DNA of 54,620 bases, filler included, from Basidiobolus ranarum (GCA_040143965.1; 2 parts of 2 records of this genome joined end to end with filler, not necessarily neighbours in it); one strand, 5' to 3'. Counted from the first letter of the whole stretch, positions 13,760-27,420 are shown. Notes: generated from the letters alone by a model not told the origin. A program made the numbers and translations.

Positions 13760-14573
13760 ATGCGCGTTCTAGTTGTCGGTGGAACCGGAAATGTTGGAAA
13801 ACTTGTCTTACAGCAACTGCTTGAACGAGGCCTTGAGGTAAGGGCCATTGTGCGCTCACCGCAATCACTGCCTACCACTATTAGCACCAATCCAAAACTG
13901 TCAGTAATTACGGCCAGCTTGCTGGATCTTAATGAAGACGAACTGGTGGGCCATGTCAAAGGGTGTGACGCGGTTATATCGACCCTGGGACATAATTTGA
14001 ACTACGGTCGCATTCCCATTCTTGGTTAGTACCTGGGTTGATGCGACTTTAGCTCTAAATCCTATTGTCTAATTTATTATGATGACTATTTTTACAGGTA
14101 TCTGGGCGGCACCACAAGATCTGGTTCTAAGTGCTTCCAAGAAGTTGTGTAGTGCCATTCAAAAGATCCAGCCAGCTGCTCCAATTAAATATATTCTTTT
14201 AAATACGACTGGCGTCAGCAATCCAGCAGGGACAGATACCCACGTCCGAAGTGGTTTAGAGTCAGTACTCGTTTCCACAATGCAGACATTACTTCCGCCA
14301 TATTCAGACAGTGTCCTTTCAGCCCAATACGTTAGTAAGGAGATTGGGACTGAAAATCAATACATTGAATGGACTACTGTACGTCCCGATGGCTTTATTG
14401 ATGGAGAAATTAGTGAATACACTCTCAAACCATCCCCCGAACATGCATTCTACCAGCCTGACCATACCACAAAGGCGAATATCGCCCATTTTATGTGTGA
14501 GTTGGTAGTAAATTCAGACACCTGGAATGAGTGGAAATTCAAAATGCCCATTATAATTGATGCTAAACAGTAA
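13760..14573 (+). CDS. NAD(P)-binding Rossmann oxidoreductase (flavin reductase/NmrA-like atypical SDR); 2 exons (intron 14025-14097)
   Basis: MRVLVVGGTGNVG, VRAIVRSP, GCDAVISTLGH, WTTVRP and ANIAHFM. The splice keeps the frame. Confidence 0.9.
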
Positions 14574-14978
14574 ATATAAGCGTAAAAACCAGCGTAAATA
14601 TAAACTATCTATAAATGAATATAAATAACTTGAATGTTTCAAGACCTAGTGATTTGTAATAGTTATAATTCCTTTGTATTTCATATTATTTTAGATATTG
14701 GGCTTCAGTGTGAATGATTTAGCTTGAAAGCTTAACTGTTGGATAAATTTGTGGTGTAACTGTTGTAAGTATTTAAGATAATTACGCAAGTATATATCCA
14801 CATGTTAAACATGATGAAATATGTTAGGATATTGGAGATATTGGAGAAATGGTGTGGGGAGTTGTGCACGAGTTGAAAGAAACTGCTATTTCTCAATAAT
14901 TCCGAAATATGTCCAAAATATATGATATGCTTTAATTTAAGTAATATTCAGTAATTATAAATCAATGTATAGGCACTT

Positions 14979-20411: not shown

Positions 20412-21845
20412 TCAAGCCAAAATGAAGTATGAATATATGGCAATGAAGAAAATCGTGCTTAAAGGTACACTGTAGCTTGATGTGTTGGAGCTTTGAGTAG
20501 AAAAGTTAACCAGACCTCTTTTTTCAAATGAAACTGTGTTAGAAGTGTTATCTCCAGTATCCTGGGAGTCGTCAGTCGAGGCACTAGCGTCATCTGAGCT
20601 AGAATCATCTCCAGCATCGTCCGAGTCATCGGTTAGGGCACTAGCGTCATCGGAGCCGGAATCGTCTCCGGTATCATCTGAGTCGTCAGTGGAGGCACTA
20701 GCGTCATCTGAGCTAGAATCGTCTTCAGTATCATCCGAGTCATCAGTTGAAGCACTAGCGTCATCAGAGTTGGAATCGTCTTCAGTATCATCTGAGTCAT
20801 CAGTGGAGGCACTAGCGTCATCTGAGCTAGAATCGTCTTCAGTTGAAGCGCTAGCATCATCAGAGTTGGAATCATCTCCGACATCATCTGAATCGTCAGT
20901 TGAACCTGAGTCAGAAAGGACAGTTGTACTGCTACCACTAGAAGAATCAGAGTTAGTGGTATTCATGCTCAAATTTTGATATGGCGGCAAGTTGGCGCAT
21001 TCGTAAGCAAGAACGAAATGGAAATTATACTGAGATAGAAGTTGTGCTATATTGGGTGTCTGCTCGACAGTGTCTATATAAATATCATGTTGTAACGAGA
21101 CAAATCCAGGATCGTTATGAGCGTTAAGATCAGTACCATTAAGTATAGCTGTCTTAAAAGAATCTAGGATAAGGCTTGGATCTTCATTCTTCTCTGAAAT
21201 ATCCCAATCCAGAGTATCCATGTTCCATAGCAAAGTATGATATCCCATCGCTTTGAAGATTGCTTTAACACGATCGTCTGCTTCACCATAGGGAGGACGG
21301 ATATATGCAGGTTTCGCACCAGTTATGTTAAACAGAGTGTCCTCAGTAGCTTTTACCTCGGCGACAATCTGAGCGTTTGAGAGAGACATCAAATGTGGAT
21401 GCGACCAGGTATGGGAGGCAATCTGATGACCCTCGTCATATGCTCTTTTAACTACATCTGGGAATTGAATCACATTCGAACCGATCATTTGAAATGTGGC
21501 TTTAACATTTGCTGCCGCAAGAATGTCGAGTAATTGTGAAGTATACTGAGATGGACCATCATCAAATGTTAGAGCCCACTGTCCAGCTTGACAACCATAG
21601 ATATCATCTGGTAAAGCACAGTTTCCACAAGTCTCCCAGCAGTTCTCGCAGTCCCCGGGACCGCATTGAGAGGTTGGGCAGGTACCTGATCCTACTGGTC
21701 TGGGCGCGATATCAGGAACACTCGAGAGATCATATTCACTAACCCAGGCAGGATTAATTGTGGCCAAAGTAGTAGACTCTGCTTCTTGGGCGTGGGCTAC
21801 TTTGATTAGAGCCAGAAGAGCTAGTGAAGTAAGTTGCAAATGCAT
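20412..21845 (-). CDS. Secreted, probably GPI-anchored chitin deacetylase (CE4/NodB) with an acidic Asp/Ser repeat stalk
   Basis: Signal peptide, Cys-rich N-terminus, TFDDGP, HTWSHPHL, RPPYG, DTLDW and LQHD motifs, hydrophobic C-terminus. Confidence 0.93.
   Translation of the reverse strand: MHLQLTSLALLALIKVAHAQEAESTTLATINPAWVSEYDLSSVPDIAPRPVGSGTCPTSQCGPGDCENCWETCGNCALPDDIYGCQAGQWALTFDDGPSQYTSQLLDILAAANVKATFQMIGSNVIQFPDVVKRAYDEGHQIASHTWSHPHLMSLSNAQIVAEVKATEDTLFNITGAKPAYIRPPYGEADDRVKAIFKAMGYHTLLWNMDTLDWDISEKNEDPSLILDSFKTAILNGTDLNAHNDPGFVSLQHDIYIDTVEQTPNIAQLLSQYNFHFVLAYECANLPPYQNLSMNTTNSDSSSGSSTTVLSDSGSTDDSDDVGDDSNSDDASASTEDDSSSDDASASTDDSDDTEDDSNSDDASASTDDSDDTEDDSSSDDASASTDDSDDTGDDSGSDDASALTDDSDDAGDDSSSDDASASTDDSQDTGDNTSNTVSFEKRGLVNFSTQSSNTSSYSVPLSTIFFIAIYSYFILA
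20550..20900 (-). repeat. Coding tandem repeat, about 6 x 57 bp (DDSDDTEDDSSSDDASAST)
   Basis: Visible in both the DNA (gcactagcgtcatc...) and the protein. One unit is shortened. Confidence 0.9.
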
Positions 21846-23552
21846 GGCTGACTTTGAGAGAACAAGTATTAAATGCTGCTGGATTCCTGTGGAAGTATTG
21901 CTACTTCAAGCGGCTTTTATACTATTTTATCGCGTCCATGTAGCTGTTCATAAATTTCAGAATAATCAAGACTATTAATGTTCACCATTAAGCCCAAATG
22001 ATTTCTAGCTTGAGAGCTTAGCGTCAAGGCATTGTTGATTGAAACCATGATTCAGTTATTTTTGGAATGATTTAGTTAATCTTAGAGATTGGACATTCTT
22101 ACCTATATATTTTAGCCAATAACTAATCTGGTCGCACTAGATTTATGTTGTGCAGATGTTACCAAGTTTACCACTTCCCTCTCAGACAAAAATAGATGGA
22201 AGGAGAGAGTTGAATTTACTTGTTGAATTTACCATCGATTTGATCATATCAGTGTAACCAATATCAACCTGGCATTCATATGAGATACTTCCCTTTTATG
22301 GTAAAATGTTAATTTAATAAGGACAAGTATTTAGCCACTAATTATCTTTCAGGAACAAAATTCCAATTTTCTAGACCAAGTCCTCAGACCTAACCCTCAG
22401 CACGCTTTTGGCGGAAGTACAGCGGCTGAAAAAGAGCACATGACGAGAGAGAGCACATAACGAGGAAGACACTGGACAACGGCATTAAGCCAGCCTCGAG
22501 TGATGATATAATGATTGATATAAACGAAACGTCACTCCATAAAAAAATCGGAACAATGGTTTTTCCAATATGTAAAGTAATTAATTAGATTTGAATCGCT
22601 TCAAGTGAAAGGAGTTCAGAAAATTGATAATGAACGCTGAGACAGATTCCAGAATAATAAATATTCATGTAGGATTGGTGATATAGCCATTAGCTTGAGT
22701 TCATATCGGGAATGACATATAAACACTCTGGAGAGTTGGATTTGCCTTTAGTGTATTATTGCACAATACATGTAACCAACCCAGCAGATATTGATAAAGT
22801 ATTTGGCTCTAGGGGATTGAGGAGGTTAGGGTTAAGTTAGTATTAGGGTTAGGGTTAGTATATAATATCGAATAATCTAAACTTCTCCGAAAGGTTTAGT
22901 TGCTTTAATCTCTGCTCCATATTGAGTGAGAAATGTGCTTTAATTATTTTATGAAAGGTTTTGAATAATATTCCATTTGTTGTAAACAAGCTTAGTTAGT
23001 CTACGTTGGAGGTTTCCACCTATAAGACTTTTACCGCTTAAATTTACGCGAAATGTTGGCTATATGGGTTAGGTATATATATTCTATTCAGATACTAAAA
23101 TTAGCTCCATCGGTTACGTGTTTAACTACGTGTCATAATACTCAATTCAATCTTATATGCTAGACTGAAGGTTGTTTCTAGAAAGATCGATAATATCATA
23201 AAATTGAGCCTCCATTTGGATTGAAATTCACGAAGAATAAAATTAACGAACTTTTTTGGCAATCCTTGAGCGTTGATTTTGGACACCAAATGAAAAAAAC
23301 ACTAATCAATCAATATCATGGTGATCTTCGTTTTCTGAGCATTAATTAGATCAGGGTAGTTCATGATTAGACATGGGTTAAGAAGAAAAAAATTCTATGG
23401 GATTCTAACGTTTACTTCTGGTTTAGAGAAATTTTATCAACTCTGTTATGAATAAAAGCAAAGCATTGAGCTGCTAAATCGTTACATTCTTGTCTTGTCC
23501 ACAAGTTTCCAACTTAAAGGTGAGTTTCATATTTTCTTTTACCTTTGGATGT

Positions 23553-23674
23553 ATATGCGGTATGAAGAAAACCATTTTTGTCTTCAACCTGTCTTATCGA
23601 TCATGAAGATACATTACAAATGCCCTTCGCTGAGGGCGTTTCATACTTGCCAGTATATACCACTGACCGCATAT
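23553..23674 (+). ncRNA. Box C/D snoRNA, snR190-like, copy 1
   Basis: C box ATGAAGA, D' TCGA, C' ATGAAGA, internal GCCCT/AGGGC hairpin, CTTGCCAGT motif, D box CTGA, terminal stem atatgcgg/ccgcatat. Intronic and upstream of U14. C/D class is firm; the family name is inferred. Confidence 0.75.
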
Positions 23675-23851
23675 CATCTTCGCAAAAATCTCCCCATTTC
23701 CATTGTCACTTTTATTAACAATTTATTAGCCTTCCTACAGATATGAGCATCCATCCATGAACTTAAGAACTGAGCAATTGTTCAAACCATCGCAGTCGTA
23801 GTATTCCGTTTGAAATGGTGAGTACTTTCCTTCATTTATCTGATTATTCTC

Positions 23852-23965
23852 GCGGTATGACGAAAAATATTTTTGTCTTCAACCTGTCTTATCGATCATG
23901 AAGATACAATACAAATGCCCTTCGCTGAGGGCGTTTCATACTTGCCAGTATACTTTACTGACCGC
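23852..23965 (+). ncRNA. Box C/D snoRNA, snR190-like, copy 2
   Basis: C box ATGACGA to D box CTGA, stem gcgg/ccgc. Core nearly identical to copy 1. Confidence 0.75.
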
Positions 23966-24150
23966 ATTATTACTTCGCAAGAAGCTTACCCTTTTCCATC
24001 CGCACCATTACTAATAATCCATTAGTTCACTTTTAGACAAAATGAACAATCCTGGTTGAAACCCCTTCCATCCGAGCTCCACGTAAACATCAGGTGAGTC
24101 TTGTGAATCCAATGGGTTGTTGGTTTCTGAGTTTGGTGTATTGTGGTGAG

Positions 24151-24279
24151 AGTGCAATCGGAATGACGAAAACCATTTTTGTCTTCAACCTGTCTTATCG
24201 ATCATGAAGATACAACACAAATGCCCTTCGCTGAGGGCGTTTCATACTTGCCAGTATACTTTACTGACCGTATTGCACT
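24151..24279 (+). ncRNA. Box C/D snoRNA, snR190-like, copy 3
   Basis: C box ATGACGA to D box CTGA. A different but still pairing terminal stem, agtgcaat-cgg/ccg-tattgcact. Confidence 0.75.
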
Positions 24280-24582
24280 TGAGCTCAATCACGCTCCGAA
24301 ACAGATGATTTCAGTAGCGAGTGAATGAACCGGTTGCTAACGAATATTCTTTGATATCTAGATATGACTACTGTATATAATATCCACTCTGATTACCTCG
24401 GTGCTATACGTATGCATTAATTTGCCGTATCTCAGAACTTTGTACCTATTCTGCTCTGCTTCCACGAATACAGCGGTTAACTGTAACTATCCGACTATTA
24501 TAAGGTGAGAATCAGGTCAATTTCAACATTGGCATATTGAAAGCAGTACTTGGCAGTGAAGCAAGAGCAGTAGTAGCTTCAT

Positions 24583-24672
24583 TTAATGATGAAAAACCAA
24601 TACCAATTCGCAGTTTTCACCGAAGGATCGAAAGATCCGATGCTGGTATTATCTTCCTTGGATGTCTGAACC
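24583..24672 (+). ncRNA. U14: U14 (snR128/SNORD14) snoRNA, copy 1
   Basis: C box ATGATGA; domain A TTCGCAGTTT (antisense to 18S AAACUGCGAA); Y-domain hairpin GGATCGAAAGATCC; domain B CTTCCTTGGATGT plus CTGA (18S Cm414 guide). Confidence 0.95.
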
Positions 24673-24924
24673 CCAATGAAAGCTACTACTACTACTGTAG
24701 TGTCCTCACTGTTTCTTGTGCTATTCACAGCTGATGCTTCAAGTATTTGTCGAATGACGATGACTAATATTTTGTTGCTACTATAGATATTCATTGTTAC
24801 GATCAAAACGAAAGGACCGTTTGCAATGTCGAAGCTTCCTTCAGTCAGTGAACCGTAGGTAAGGCACATTCCACCATATTTGTTGTAGACCCAGCTGGTC
24901 TAGAATGTAAGGATGTGTGGCATC

Positions 24925-25014
24925 TAAATGATGAAAAACCAATACCAATTCGCAGTTTTCACCGAAGAATCGAAAGGTTCAATGCTGGTATAATCTTCCT
25001 TGGATGTCTGAACT
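24925..25014 (+). ncRNA. U14: U14 snoRNA, copy 2
   Basis: Same boxes and domains as copy 1. The hairpin varies as GAATCGAAAGGTTC and still pairs. Long complementary intronic flanks. Confidence 0.95.
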
Positions 25015-25243
25015 AGATATTCACACACTTACATTCTTGACTTTGTCGAGTCAGATACTGGATGTTGTGACAGAGAACTAATAATGATTATTTCCGCTTC
25101 TAGATATTCATGACTTGGTCGTTGTAAATATGTACACCAGTATGACCCTCACCTTGAGCTCACTTCAAATGGTAAGCTATTTTTCAAAGATCTGTAAGAC
25201 AGCGCAGAATACAGAGTTTGTATGTGTGTTGATTTGATGGCAA

Positions 25244-25324
25244 TCATACAATGATGAAATCAACCAAAATACAATAGGAAGTGCCGTCCGATTATCAGTG
25301 ACGATGAATGGTTCCCTGAAATGA
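25244..25324 (+). ncRNA. U49: U49 (SNORD49)-like box C/D snoRNA
   Basis: ATGATGA...AATAGGAAGTGCCGT-CCGA (D')...GTGACGA (C')...CTGA. The guide is antisense to LSU CGGCUCUUCCUAU and matches the U49 guide as I recall it. Confidence 0.8.
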
Positions 25325-26345
25325 CAACCACATGCACACGTACATTTCAGACTCTGTATTTGTGGGTGTAAAGAGAAGAGCAATGACTAATGTTGATTTG
25401 TTTCTAGGTACAACTGCAATTTTGAATGTGCTGTGCTGAGCTGTATATTATTGTTAATAAAAAACTTTTGAACATAATTTATGACTTCTATCAAGCGTCT
25501 GTTAATCAGTCTATATACTACAATATTCTAATGGTATTCAGATCTCCTGACATTACATTCAACCATTTCATGGTTTTACATTTCATGGTTGAATATGGCT
25601 TGTATATCGTTTGTAGTTAGTGAACGCTTCCCTACAACTTGGGAACATCTGAGAATCATCGATTTATACTACTCCAGAGAAGTATGCCATTGACAGCGGA
25701 AGGTTTGATAGGGATTGTATTCTAAGTCACATCATCTAACCCGTCTACCAGTGATTTATACTACATCTATCCATCCAATTTATCAATTACATATTATGGA
25801 TACAGTCGTTATTGTTGGGATACCTGACTAGCATGAAATTGCTCAAAAGCAAGCCAAGAATCCAAATAAAACTTAGGAAATTAATGATAAAATCGAAATG
25901 TAATTAAGAGATTATGTTAAAGCCAACAAAGCTACTGTTTCTGTGAAATTGATTCCACAGTAAAGGTTTCTTTGAGATGAATAGTTCGACATATATTAAA
26001 TTTATGTTGGTTTCAAAGGGATGTTAATGGCAAATAGCAATCGAAGTTAGGTATAGTTTGGTTGAATTCATTTATTGATTTTCATATCGGATTTCAACTC
26101 AGAAGGAATAAAAAGTCAAACAATGTGAATCTATTGAGATGTATGAGTTCATTTTTCTAGTATCGAAAGAACAATCCACTCCATGGTCAGTCTAGTATGA
26201 AATAGAGGAAGGATAAGGAGACAGACAAACACAAAGTTATTTAAGAGATGAAAAAAGAATGGGATAATTTCAACTAGTAACAAGGAAATATTATGAAATT
26301 CAAAGCTATATTTAACATAGATATGTATCAAGCACATTTGAAGGA

Positions 26346-27420
26346 TTAAGCTTTCTTAGGAGTAGGTCTGTAGACACCAACAACCAAAGCATGATCACGT
26401 TCATATGGTTCAAGAGTAAGTTGTTCTTGGGGCTTAATGCGTTCTTGTTGAAGCTTCTTGACTTCAGAAGCGAATACCTTGACAGCCTCAACGGTGGAGT
26501 CAATGCAGTTAGCCTTGATGGAGATAACAATGTGTCCTTCAGTCTTCAAGAAGTTGTGAGCGTTCAAAGCGATGATACGAGCTTGATCAGGTTGAGCAAC
26601 ATCGGCGAATACAACATCCACTAAGTCGATAAGCATACGATACTTGTGGGGATGACGAGCATCTTCAATGATGGGAATAACGTTGGTGCGCTTCTTAGCC
26701 ATGTTGATCAAATCACGACCGGAACGGTGAGAGAATTCAACGGCATAAACGATACCCTGGGGTCCGACGATATCAGCAACGTGAGAGACGGTAGTACCAC
26801 TGGAAGCACCGAGGTACAAAACTCTGGATCCAGGAGCAATGTGAATGTTATCAACACCACCCAAGATACCAGCAGCCAACTTGGAACGGAAAGGATTCCA
26901 AACACGGTATTCAGTTTTAACACCATCAGCACCTTCAACGGAAACTCTCTTCTCACCATAAACAGATTCTCCGGGGGTCAAATTCTTGGTGACCAAAAGA
27001 TCTTCCTTACCACGGGCAATGAAAACACCAGCATGTCTGTGAGGTTCAACAACAACCTTGAAACCAGGCTTGGCACCACCAGCACCACCGCGACCACCTA
27101 TGCATATATAGGGTAAGTTATGGAAATTTTATATTGAATAAATCATAGAAAGTACTTACCACGGGCACCACCACGGCCTCCACCACGAGCACCACCGCAA
27201 ACTCCTAAGCCACCACCAGAACAGCCGCGACCGCAACCACAAACAACACAAAACACACCTCGAAATAAACAACGAAAAAAACAATAAACAACGCGTGCAC
27301 CACCGAAGGAAAAAANNNNNNNNNNNNNNNNNNNNNNNNNNNNNNNNNNNNNNNNNNNNTTAATTAATTAANNNNNNNNNNNNNNNNNNNNNNNNNNNNN
27401 NNNNNNNNNNNNNNNACCAT
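26346..27420 (-). CDS. NOP1: Fibrillarin, rRNA 2'-O-methyltransferase; the 5' GAR exon is interrupted by an assembly gap
   Basis: [34 protein letters not shown] and [16 protein letters not shown]-coding exon beyond intron 27098-27159. Probable ATG at 27420-27418. Confidence 0.97.
27317..27415. other. Assembly gap: N-run containing an artificial TTAATTAATTAA all-frame-stop spacer
   Basis: N x43, then TTAATTAATTAA (27360-27371), then N x44. Confidence 0.95.

Follow-up and report, generated by a model that had tools for sequence, protein, structure and literature searches.

A probable non-coding host gene with six box C/D snoRNAs in predicted introns, next to fibrillarin in a Basidiobolus genome

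What kind of gene occupies the 2-kb stretch of DNA beside the fibrillarin gene (NOP1) of Basidiobolus ranarum, a stretch that annotation based on open reading frames (ORFs) would leave empty? The DNA analysed, called the window below, is 54,620 nucleotides (nt) long (GCA_040143965.1). An earlier reading of it, the original prediction, had placed here a spliced transcript without an evident ORF and with one small nucleolar RNA (snoRNA), of the box C/D class, per intron: three snR190-like RNAs, two U14 and one U49. A permissive Rfam scan of positions 23300-25600 found six non-overlapping box C/D snoRNAs on the + strand between 23557 and 25321, in exactly this composition. Each lies by itself in a predicted intron, and the joined exons contain no long ORF, both as the original prediction had it. 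The locus is probably a snoRNA host gene like UHG or GAS5, non-coding and with several introns. Its splicing, its transcription as one unit and its transcript ends are predicted from signals in the sequence.

We determined the identity of the six RNAs from their family matches and boxes. At Rfam gathering scores, a scan of the entire 54.6-kb window returned only three matches, all in this region. Three of the six RNAs belong to the snR107 family. Since the Schizosaccharomyces pombe orthologue of budding-yeast snR190 and of human SNORD12, SNORD12B and SNORD12C was named snR107 in 2024 (bioRxiv 10.1101/2024.10.03.615557), the label 'snR190-like' was correct. All six RNAs possess CUGA and a box C, which reads UGAUGA in both U14 copies and in the SNORD49-like RNA. 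On the same strand, and within 1.5 kb, the three snR107 copies are followed by the two of U14, and the five would be carried by one transcript. In its 5' part the SNORD49-like RNA also matched SNORD65, more weakly and over the same bases (25249-25321; 33.4 bits, gathering 41). In humans the SNORD49 and SNORD65 families have one common host gene, and the double match may reflect common ancestry of the two families.

The splice signals around the snoRNAs follow a uniform pattern. In front of every snoRNA, 40-82 nt before box C, stands a GT[AG]AG site; behind it lies a CTAAY/TTAAC branch motif followed by YAG 74-117 nt downstream of box D, so that each would be alone in its own intron. Signals within the same distance ranges surround 6 of 6 snoRNAs versus 2.9% of 20,000 random window positions. 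The GTAAGT...CTAAC...YAG grammar is also found in a 57-nt P450 intron and in the 62-nt fibrillarin intron of the window. Near the predicted start, at ~23451, lies an AT-rich stretch, AATAAAAG, possibly a TATA-like element.

The exons, when joined (about 540-650 nt), have stops throughout all three frames, and their longest ATG-initiated ORF spans 19 codons. Four local unspliced ORFs of 62-96 amino acids overlap snoRNAs or AT-rich spacer. None of them reached a Pfam cut-off, and the sole Pfam listing was at chance level (E 0.18; 10.7 bits, cut-off 24.8). The exon RNA was less structured than its shuffles (z +2.2).

Conservation among the copies is confined to the snoRNAs. From box C to box D, the three snR107 bodies were 92-97% identical (92-93% for copy 1 against the other two), whereas their flanks shared 29-62%. 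The U14 bodies were 94% identical, and their flanks, at 37-38%, were at the level found between unrelated units. Since the bodies are alike and the flanks have diverged, the copies are no recent tandem duplication; the likeness of the bodies is maintained by either selection or conversion. In the internal hairpin of U14, the copies differ by a G-C to A-U replacement on both sides and by a U-A to U-G change, and the stem is kept. The antisense elements of snR107 are exactly shared by all three copies.

Table. Features of the snoRNA locus and of its surroundings, with positions counted from the first nucleotide of the window (dG, free energy).
Feature	Position	Strand	Details
snR107 copy 1	23557-23672 (Rfam match 23557-23664)	+	RF04328, 41.0 bits, E 1e-5, gathering 44; box C UGAAGA at 23563, box D CUGA 23663-23666; terminal stem GCGG/CCGC
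snR107 copy 2	23852-23970	+	RF04328, 46.2 bits, over gathering; box C UGACGA 23858, box D 23958-23961
snR107 copy 3	24158-24276	+	RF04328, 44.7 bits, over gathering; box C UGACGA 24164, box D 24264-24267
U14 copy a	24581-24673	+	RF00016, 43.4 bits, E 3.5e-7; box C 24587, box D 24666-24669
U14 copy b	24923-25015	+	RF00016, 49.0 bits, E 1e-8; box C 24929, box D 25008-25011
SNORD49-like RNA	25247-25321	+	RF00277, 37.6 bits, barely over gathering 37; box C 25252, D' CCGA at 25288, C' UGACGA at 25299, box D 25316-25319
External stem, snR107 copy 3	24119-24162 with 24268-24307		dG -36.6 kcal/mol; 0/300 shuffles
External stem, U14 copy a	24542-24584 with 24674-24714		dG -30.5 kcal/mol; 0/300 shuffles
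External stem, U14 copy b	24887-24927 with 25013-25053		dG -33.9 kcal/mol; 0/300 shuffles
External stem, SNORD49-like RNA	25207-25248 with 25320-25362		dG -33.1 kcal/mol; 0/300 shuffles
Predicted first exon	23460-23519	+	ends AAG/GTGAGT; 5' end approximate
Predicted intron 1	23520-23740	+	221 nt; GTGAGT...TTAAC (23715)...YAG; alternative AG at 23729
Predicted intron 2	23818-24036	+	219 nt; GTGAGT...CTAAT (24011)...YAG
Predicted intron 3	24094-24361	+	268 nt; GTGAGT...CTAAC (24337)...TAG
Predicted intron 4	24505-24786	+	282 nt; GTGAGA...CTAAT (24764)...TAG
Predicted intron 5	24859-25103	+	245 nt; GTAAGG...CTAAT (25078)...TAG
Predicted intron 6	25172-25407	+	236 nt; GTAAGC...CTAAT (25387)...TAG
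Predicted last exon	25408-25480	+	AATAAA at 25456-25461; 3' end predicted
Fibrillarin (NOP1), main exon	26346-27097	-	PF01269, 356 bits, profile 1-226 of 227; stop 26346-26348
Fibrillarin, intron and partial Gly/Arg-rich first exon	27098-27315	-	intron of 62 nt (27098-27159); exon cut by linker
Chitin deacetylase	20412-21905	-	PF01522; upstream neighbour, divergent from snoRNA host, 1.5-kb spacer between
Hsp70	7196-9154	+	full-length, cytosolic type; PF00012, 875 bits; intronless (ORF uninterrupted)
Truncated tRNA-like remnant	6624-6674	-	RF00005, 20.1 bits, gathering 29; ~550 nt upstream of Hsp70 start

We then asked whether the snoRNAs carry guide elements that fit ribosomal RNA. Pairing was judged on stand-in eukaryotic ribosomal DNA (rDNA) from prokaryote assemblies. 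In an unrestricted search, shuffled snoRNAs gave equally long runs when G.U pairs were allowed, so guides were judged only at the canonical place beside D or D'. At least 44 eukaryotic 18S contigs contain the reverse complements of the two U14 elements (11 and 13 nt) at a spacing of 300-330 nt. Four contigs were checked with Rfam and are eukaryotic rDNA, and one of them, L108, holds a full unit. A U14 pattern had no match in a genome-contig collection. The 44 or more contigs (L081-L124) are filed under bacterial or archaeal genomes, and their eukaryotic 18S rDNA represents contamination. L108 (1-20337) is labelled as a Bryobacteraceae metagenome-assembled genome and holds eukaryotic rDNA units in tandem; a group I intron (14544-14886) lies in the large-subunit rRNA (LSU) gene.

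U14 was complementary to 18S rRNA through two elements. Its 5' element forms 12 base pairs (bp) at positions 83-94 of the L108 small-subunit rRNA, and the element abutting box D forms 14 bp at 408-421, with the fifth guide position on C412; in neither case were any of 500 shuffled guides as good. We take these elements to be domain A (5') and domain B (beside box D, guiding the Cm that corresponds to yeast C414). C412 is in line with that yeast position. It is also in line with Neurospora crassa Cm411 (PMC2780460). The D' guide of the SNORD49-like RNA equals the RF00277 consensus over 16 nt. It pairs over 12 bp, interrupted by a single U.U mismatch, at L108 LSU 3299-3313 (dG -19.2; 0/500 shuffles), a strand that is identical in a second contig, L099. 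Its box-D guide had no convincing target in the stand-in rRNA, the best dG being about -15. The box-D-linked element of snR107 is identical to the Rfam consensus and forms 11 bp at L099 LSU 321-333 (dG -17.8; 0/500 shuffles), the counterpart of the S. pombe snR107 site in 25S domain I, 333-343 (bioRxiv 10.1101/2024.10.03.615557).

Long external stems enclose four of the six snoRNAs, namely snR107 copy 3, both U14 copies and the SNORD49-like RNA. These stems differ in sequence, being unrelated between units, and they persist in whole-unit minimum-energy folds (z -3.55 for U14 copy b and z -3.66 for the SNORD49-like RNA, against dinucleotide shuffles). The other two snoRNAs, snR107 copies 1 and 2, have short terminal stems only, as good in 12 and 26 of 300 shuffles. 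By arithmetic, the intron outside the stem amounts to 78-109 nt, not far from the 57-62 nt of the two ordinary introns, versus 219-282 nt for the full introns. The long stems, with ~35-40 paired positions, would bring boxes C and D together and would in effect move the 5' splice site closer to the branch point. Both roles have precedents in yeast work.

A non-coding intronic host of this kind would operate as follows. RNA polymerase II would make a ~2 kb precursor of the + strand, from ~23460 to ~25480, and its six introns, with one box C/D snoRNA in each, would be spliced out. After debranching, exonucleases would trim the intron back to the small nucleolar ribonucleoprotein (snoRNP) on the C/D kink-turn, and the exon product of ~0.55 kb, without a usable ORF, would be discarded. 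Three groups of products are expected. The three near-identical snR107/snR190/SNORD12 RNAs would act in early 60S assembly by pairing with 25S domains V and I. The two U14 RNAs would serve 18S processing and the Cm equivalent to yeast C414, and the SNORD49-like RNA would be a 25S methylation guide.

Several observations weigh against this picture. The Rfam gathering scores of their families are not reached by either U14 copy (64) or by snR107 copy 1 (44). The U14 loss is due to an internal hairpin much shorter than in the RF00016 model, whose conserved blocks align in full, and we treat the gathering score as a curation cut-off rather than a defining feature. In all three snR107 copies box C reads UGACGA or UGAAGA, a departure from UGAUGA in the fourth position only. 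Their D'-linked element is 2 nt shorter than the RF04328 consensus and, although correctly placed in the snoRNA, pairs with the expected helix-73 strand (domain V) of the stand-in LSU only as 6 + 5 bp around a 2x4 loop, with a dG of -13.6 that 26 of 500 shuffled guides matched. This site lies at L108 LSU 2816-2832, or ~2473-2489 after intron removal, in agreement with G2483 in S. pombe. The box-D-linked element is fully complementary in only one of seven distinct stand-in site sequences, and the other stand-in LSUs have one, two or more mismatches there; nine loci with 10 motif matches underlie the count, and the match in L081 is unlike this LSU site. Introns 1 and 2 have two candidate 3' AGs each. 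The start, end, junctions and even the expression of the host are themselves predictions from the DNA. Finally, the long stems could alternatively be RNase III substrates.

Budding-yeast snR190 is an assembly chaperone, and the corresponding G is unmethylated (PMC8536666). A cautious reading of the pairing with stand-in rRNA is that snR107 here, too, might be mainly an assembly chaperone.

If the stems were cut by RNase III, the snoRNAs would be released mainly by an enzyme of the Rnt1/Pac1 type acting on the flanking stems of a polycistronic precursor, and splicing would be dispensable or secondary. The dG of -30 to -37 kcal/mol of the stems around four of the six snoRNAs would suit such a route. 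Moreover, Rnt1 frees snR190 and U14 in Saccharomyces cerevisiae, and Pac1 cleaves the mamRNA-U14 precursor of S. pombe (bioRxiv 10.1101/2024.10.03.615557; PMC12508059). However, canonical splice signals are present at all six snoRNAs, two of the snR107 copies lack strong stems, and the stems surround the whole snoRNA instead of forming a capped hairpin beside it. We thus regard release mainly by RNase III as unlikely. The two routes can coexist, and the rivalry between them is partly a matter of degree.

Does the position of the snoRNA host next to fibrillarin have a meaning of its own? Fibrillarin is convergent with the host, and its stop codon lies 885 nt beyond the host AATAAA, which agrees with the original prediction of a distance below 1 kb. 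That prediction had also proposed that guides and enzyme form a ribosome-biogenesis neighbourhood. Such a pairing could have been selected through a shared chromatin domain or through interplay of the 3' ends, coupling the supply of essential guides and methyltransferase. The 885 nt between the gene ends fit this idea, as does the chance of adjoining one of the four core C/D snoRNP genes, which by arithmetic with assumed gene numbers is ~0.1% per locus. By the same rough arithmetic, though, that chance rises to a few percent over all snoRNA loci of a genome, and the observation was made post hoc. Vertebrate NOP56 and NOP58 carry intronic snoRNAs; on the other hand, NOP1 and SNR190-U14 of S. 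cerevisiae lie on different chromosomes. Given their convergent orientation, the host and fibrillarin share no promoter.

We compared the locus with 80 metagenome fibrillarin loci from distant eukaryotes (608 kb in total, 33 of them with at least 3 kb downstream). The closest, at 83-85% identity, were transcript-like contigs of 1-2.5 kb, and the long contigs, at 74-77% identity, came from distant eukaryotes. The U14 box-D guide motif was absent from all 80 loci, even with up to two mismatches, and a gathering-score Rfam scan of 20 of them found no RNA family. Because these loci belong to distant eukaryotes, they show only that the pairing of U14 with fibrillarin is not general. The literature that we searched contained no report of a linkage between a snoRNA host and fibrillarin. 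Fibrillarin is most likely a mere neighbour, adjacent to the snoRNA host by chance, and selection for the pairing appears improbable. Equally doubtful is a conserved convergent pair in Basidiobolus or other Zoopagomycota that couples C/D guide and methyltransferase supply via 3' ends or chromatin; if true, it would constitute a eukaryotic guide-plus-enzyme gene neighbourhood. The interpretation of the original prediction therefore stands in part. An intronic, non-coding, locally amplified GAS5/UHG-like host agrees with the sequence, while the guide-plus-enzyme neighbourhood found no support in the convergent orientation or in the distant loci.

Weakest is a protein-coding host with mis-drawn exons and with snoRNAs in mRNA introns, as in ribosomal-protein and hsc70 hosts: most animal and many fungal intronic snoRNAs do lie in protein-coding hosts (PMC2780460; general knowledge), but the stop-filled exons and the unspliced ORFs described above bring this reading close to refuted, and we give it almost no weight.

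The surroundings of the locus are partly artificial. The window is a stitched pseudomolecule in which a contig-join linker, N44-TTAATTAATTAA-N44, with the look of a six-frame stop, occupies 27316-27415. Owing to this linker, the NOP1 promoter and all DNA to the right belong to another contig, which need not be a true neighbour of fibrillarin. The partial first exon of fibrillarin (27161-27313, - strand) is Gly/Arg-rich near the intron, turns Cys/Phe/Val-rich toward the contig end and has no start codon. The Cys/Phe/Val-rich end is probably low-quality contig-end sequence, resembling G-to-T miscalls in GGT codons.

No additional RNA came up in Rfam E-value scans of 21900-23500 and 25400-26400, either upstream of the snoRNA host or between it and fibrillarin. 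The best database relatives of the upstream chitin deacetylase are from B. ranarum and B. meristosporus, at 78-79% identity. Many paralogues in Basidiobolus share 60-81% identity, hinting at a large gene family in the genus. As predicted, Hsp70 is intronless. Vertebrate U14 copies lie within hsc70 introns; here Hsp70 is 14 kb upstream of the U14 cluster, and a link between the two is unsupported. Over the whole window, a naive C/D scan proposed one further candidate, upstream of Hsp70 (6623-6706), which we rejected as the reverse strand of the tRNA remnant.

The locus leaves the current understanding of snoRNA biology unchanged. This kind of gene is already published, in the Neurospora cluster V and the S. 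pombe mamRNA, and intronic snoRNA production is known. New here are the lineage, the 3+2 amplification and the presence of a SNORD49-like RNA, as well as the long external stems, the box C variant and the D' guide with its interruption. Apart from an unrelated match, our literature search found nothing linking Basidiobolus to snoRNAs. The stretch probably supplies two snoRNAs needed for building both ribosomal subunits. Of interest to specialists are the very long external stems, in introns ~4 times the usual intron length of the genome, and the D' guide, whose interruption suggests that snR107 acts solely as a chaperone, as its budding-yeast counterpart does.

The locus also provides a zoopagomycete data point for the linkage of snR190/snR107 followed by U14. 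A 2025 study described conservation of the snR107-U14 locus as 'not evident' in more divergent organisms, beyond Schizosaccharomyces (PMC12508059); the Basidiobolus locus and Neurospora cluster V say otherwise. Together, these two imply that the intronic non-coding unit predates the split between Dikarya and early-diverging fungi. The term 'ancestral-type' in the original prediction is plausible, since S. cerevisiae, S. pombe and cluster V of N. crassa also have the snR190 family ahead of U14, and since the lineage is a Basidiobolus-like zoopagomycete.

Of the known systems, N. crassa cluster V is built on the same plan. It consists of CD16, the snR190 homologue, and CD37, or U14, which are transcribed together and lie in introns of one non-coding host; this host has no ORFs other than short ones and was described as 'most like the UHG gene' (PMC2780460). 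The two loci have in common the snR190 family and U14 side by side, one snoRNA per intron, canonical splice sites and short ORFs. They differ in that Neurospora has one copy of each snoRNA, whereas the early-diverging fungal lineage studied here has three and two copies, an added SNORD49-like RNA and long stems on four of six snoRNAs. Co-transcription was demonstrated by reverse transcription PCR in Neurospora (PMC2780460) and is predicted from sequence here.

In S. pombe, snR107 lies in an intron of mamRNA, upstream of U14, in one precursor (bioRxiv 10.1101/2024.10.03.615557). An intronic snR107 in a non-coding RNA ahead of U14 is also what we predict here, with copies that match RF04328, the Rfam family made for the S. 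pombe snoRNA. S. pombe U14 is exonic and is freed by Pac1 after splicing (bioRxiv 10.1101/2024.10.03.615557; PMC12508059), while U14 would be intronic in Basidiobolus. In the published account, Mmi1 and Mei2 are bound by the exon RNA of S. pombe, and there is no hint of such binding here. The snR107 of S. pombe guides Gm2483 and its box C is canonical, whereas the present copies deviate in box C and carry a D' guide with an interruption. The SNR190-U14 unit of S. cerevisiae comprises the same two families in the same order in one precursor, but it is intronless, Rnt1-processed and made up of single copies (PMC8536666). There, snR190 is a non-methylating chaperone that acts via two antisense boxes (PMC8536666), and the weak D' guide found here would fit such a role.

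A further comparison is with animals. GAS5 and UHG are non-coding snoRNA hosts, and animal hosts of this kind have a 5'TOP start. Human U14 is multi-copy, as it is here, and resides in the protein-coding hosts HSPA8 and RPS13, separate from the host of the SNORD12 family. Human SNORD12, SNORD12B and SNORD12C occupy consecutive introns of ZFAS1 (bioRxiv 10.1101/2024.10.03.615557). The Basidiobolus locus, a non-coding host by prediction, likewise appears to have successive introns occupied by paralogous snoRNAs of one family, and it would unite in one gene the two families that are housed in separate hosts in humans.

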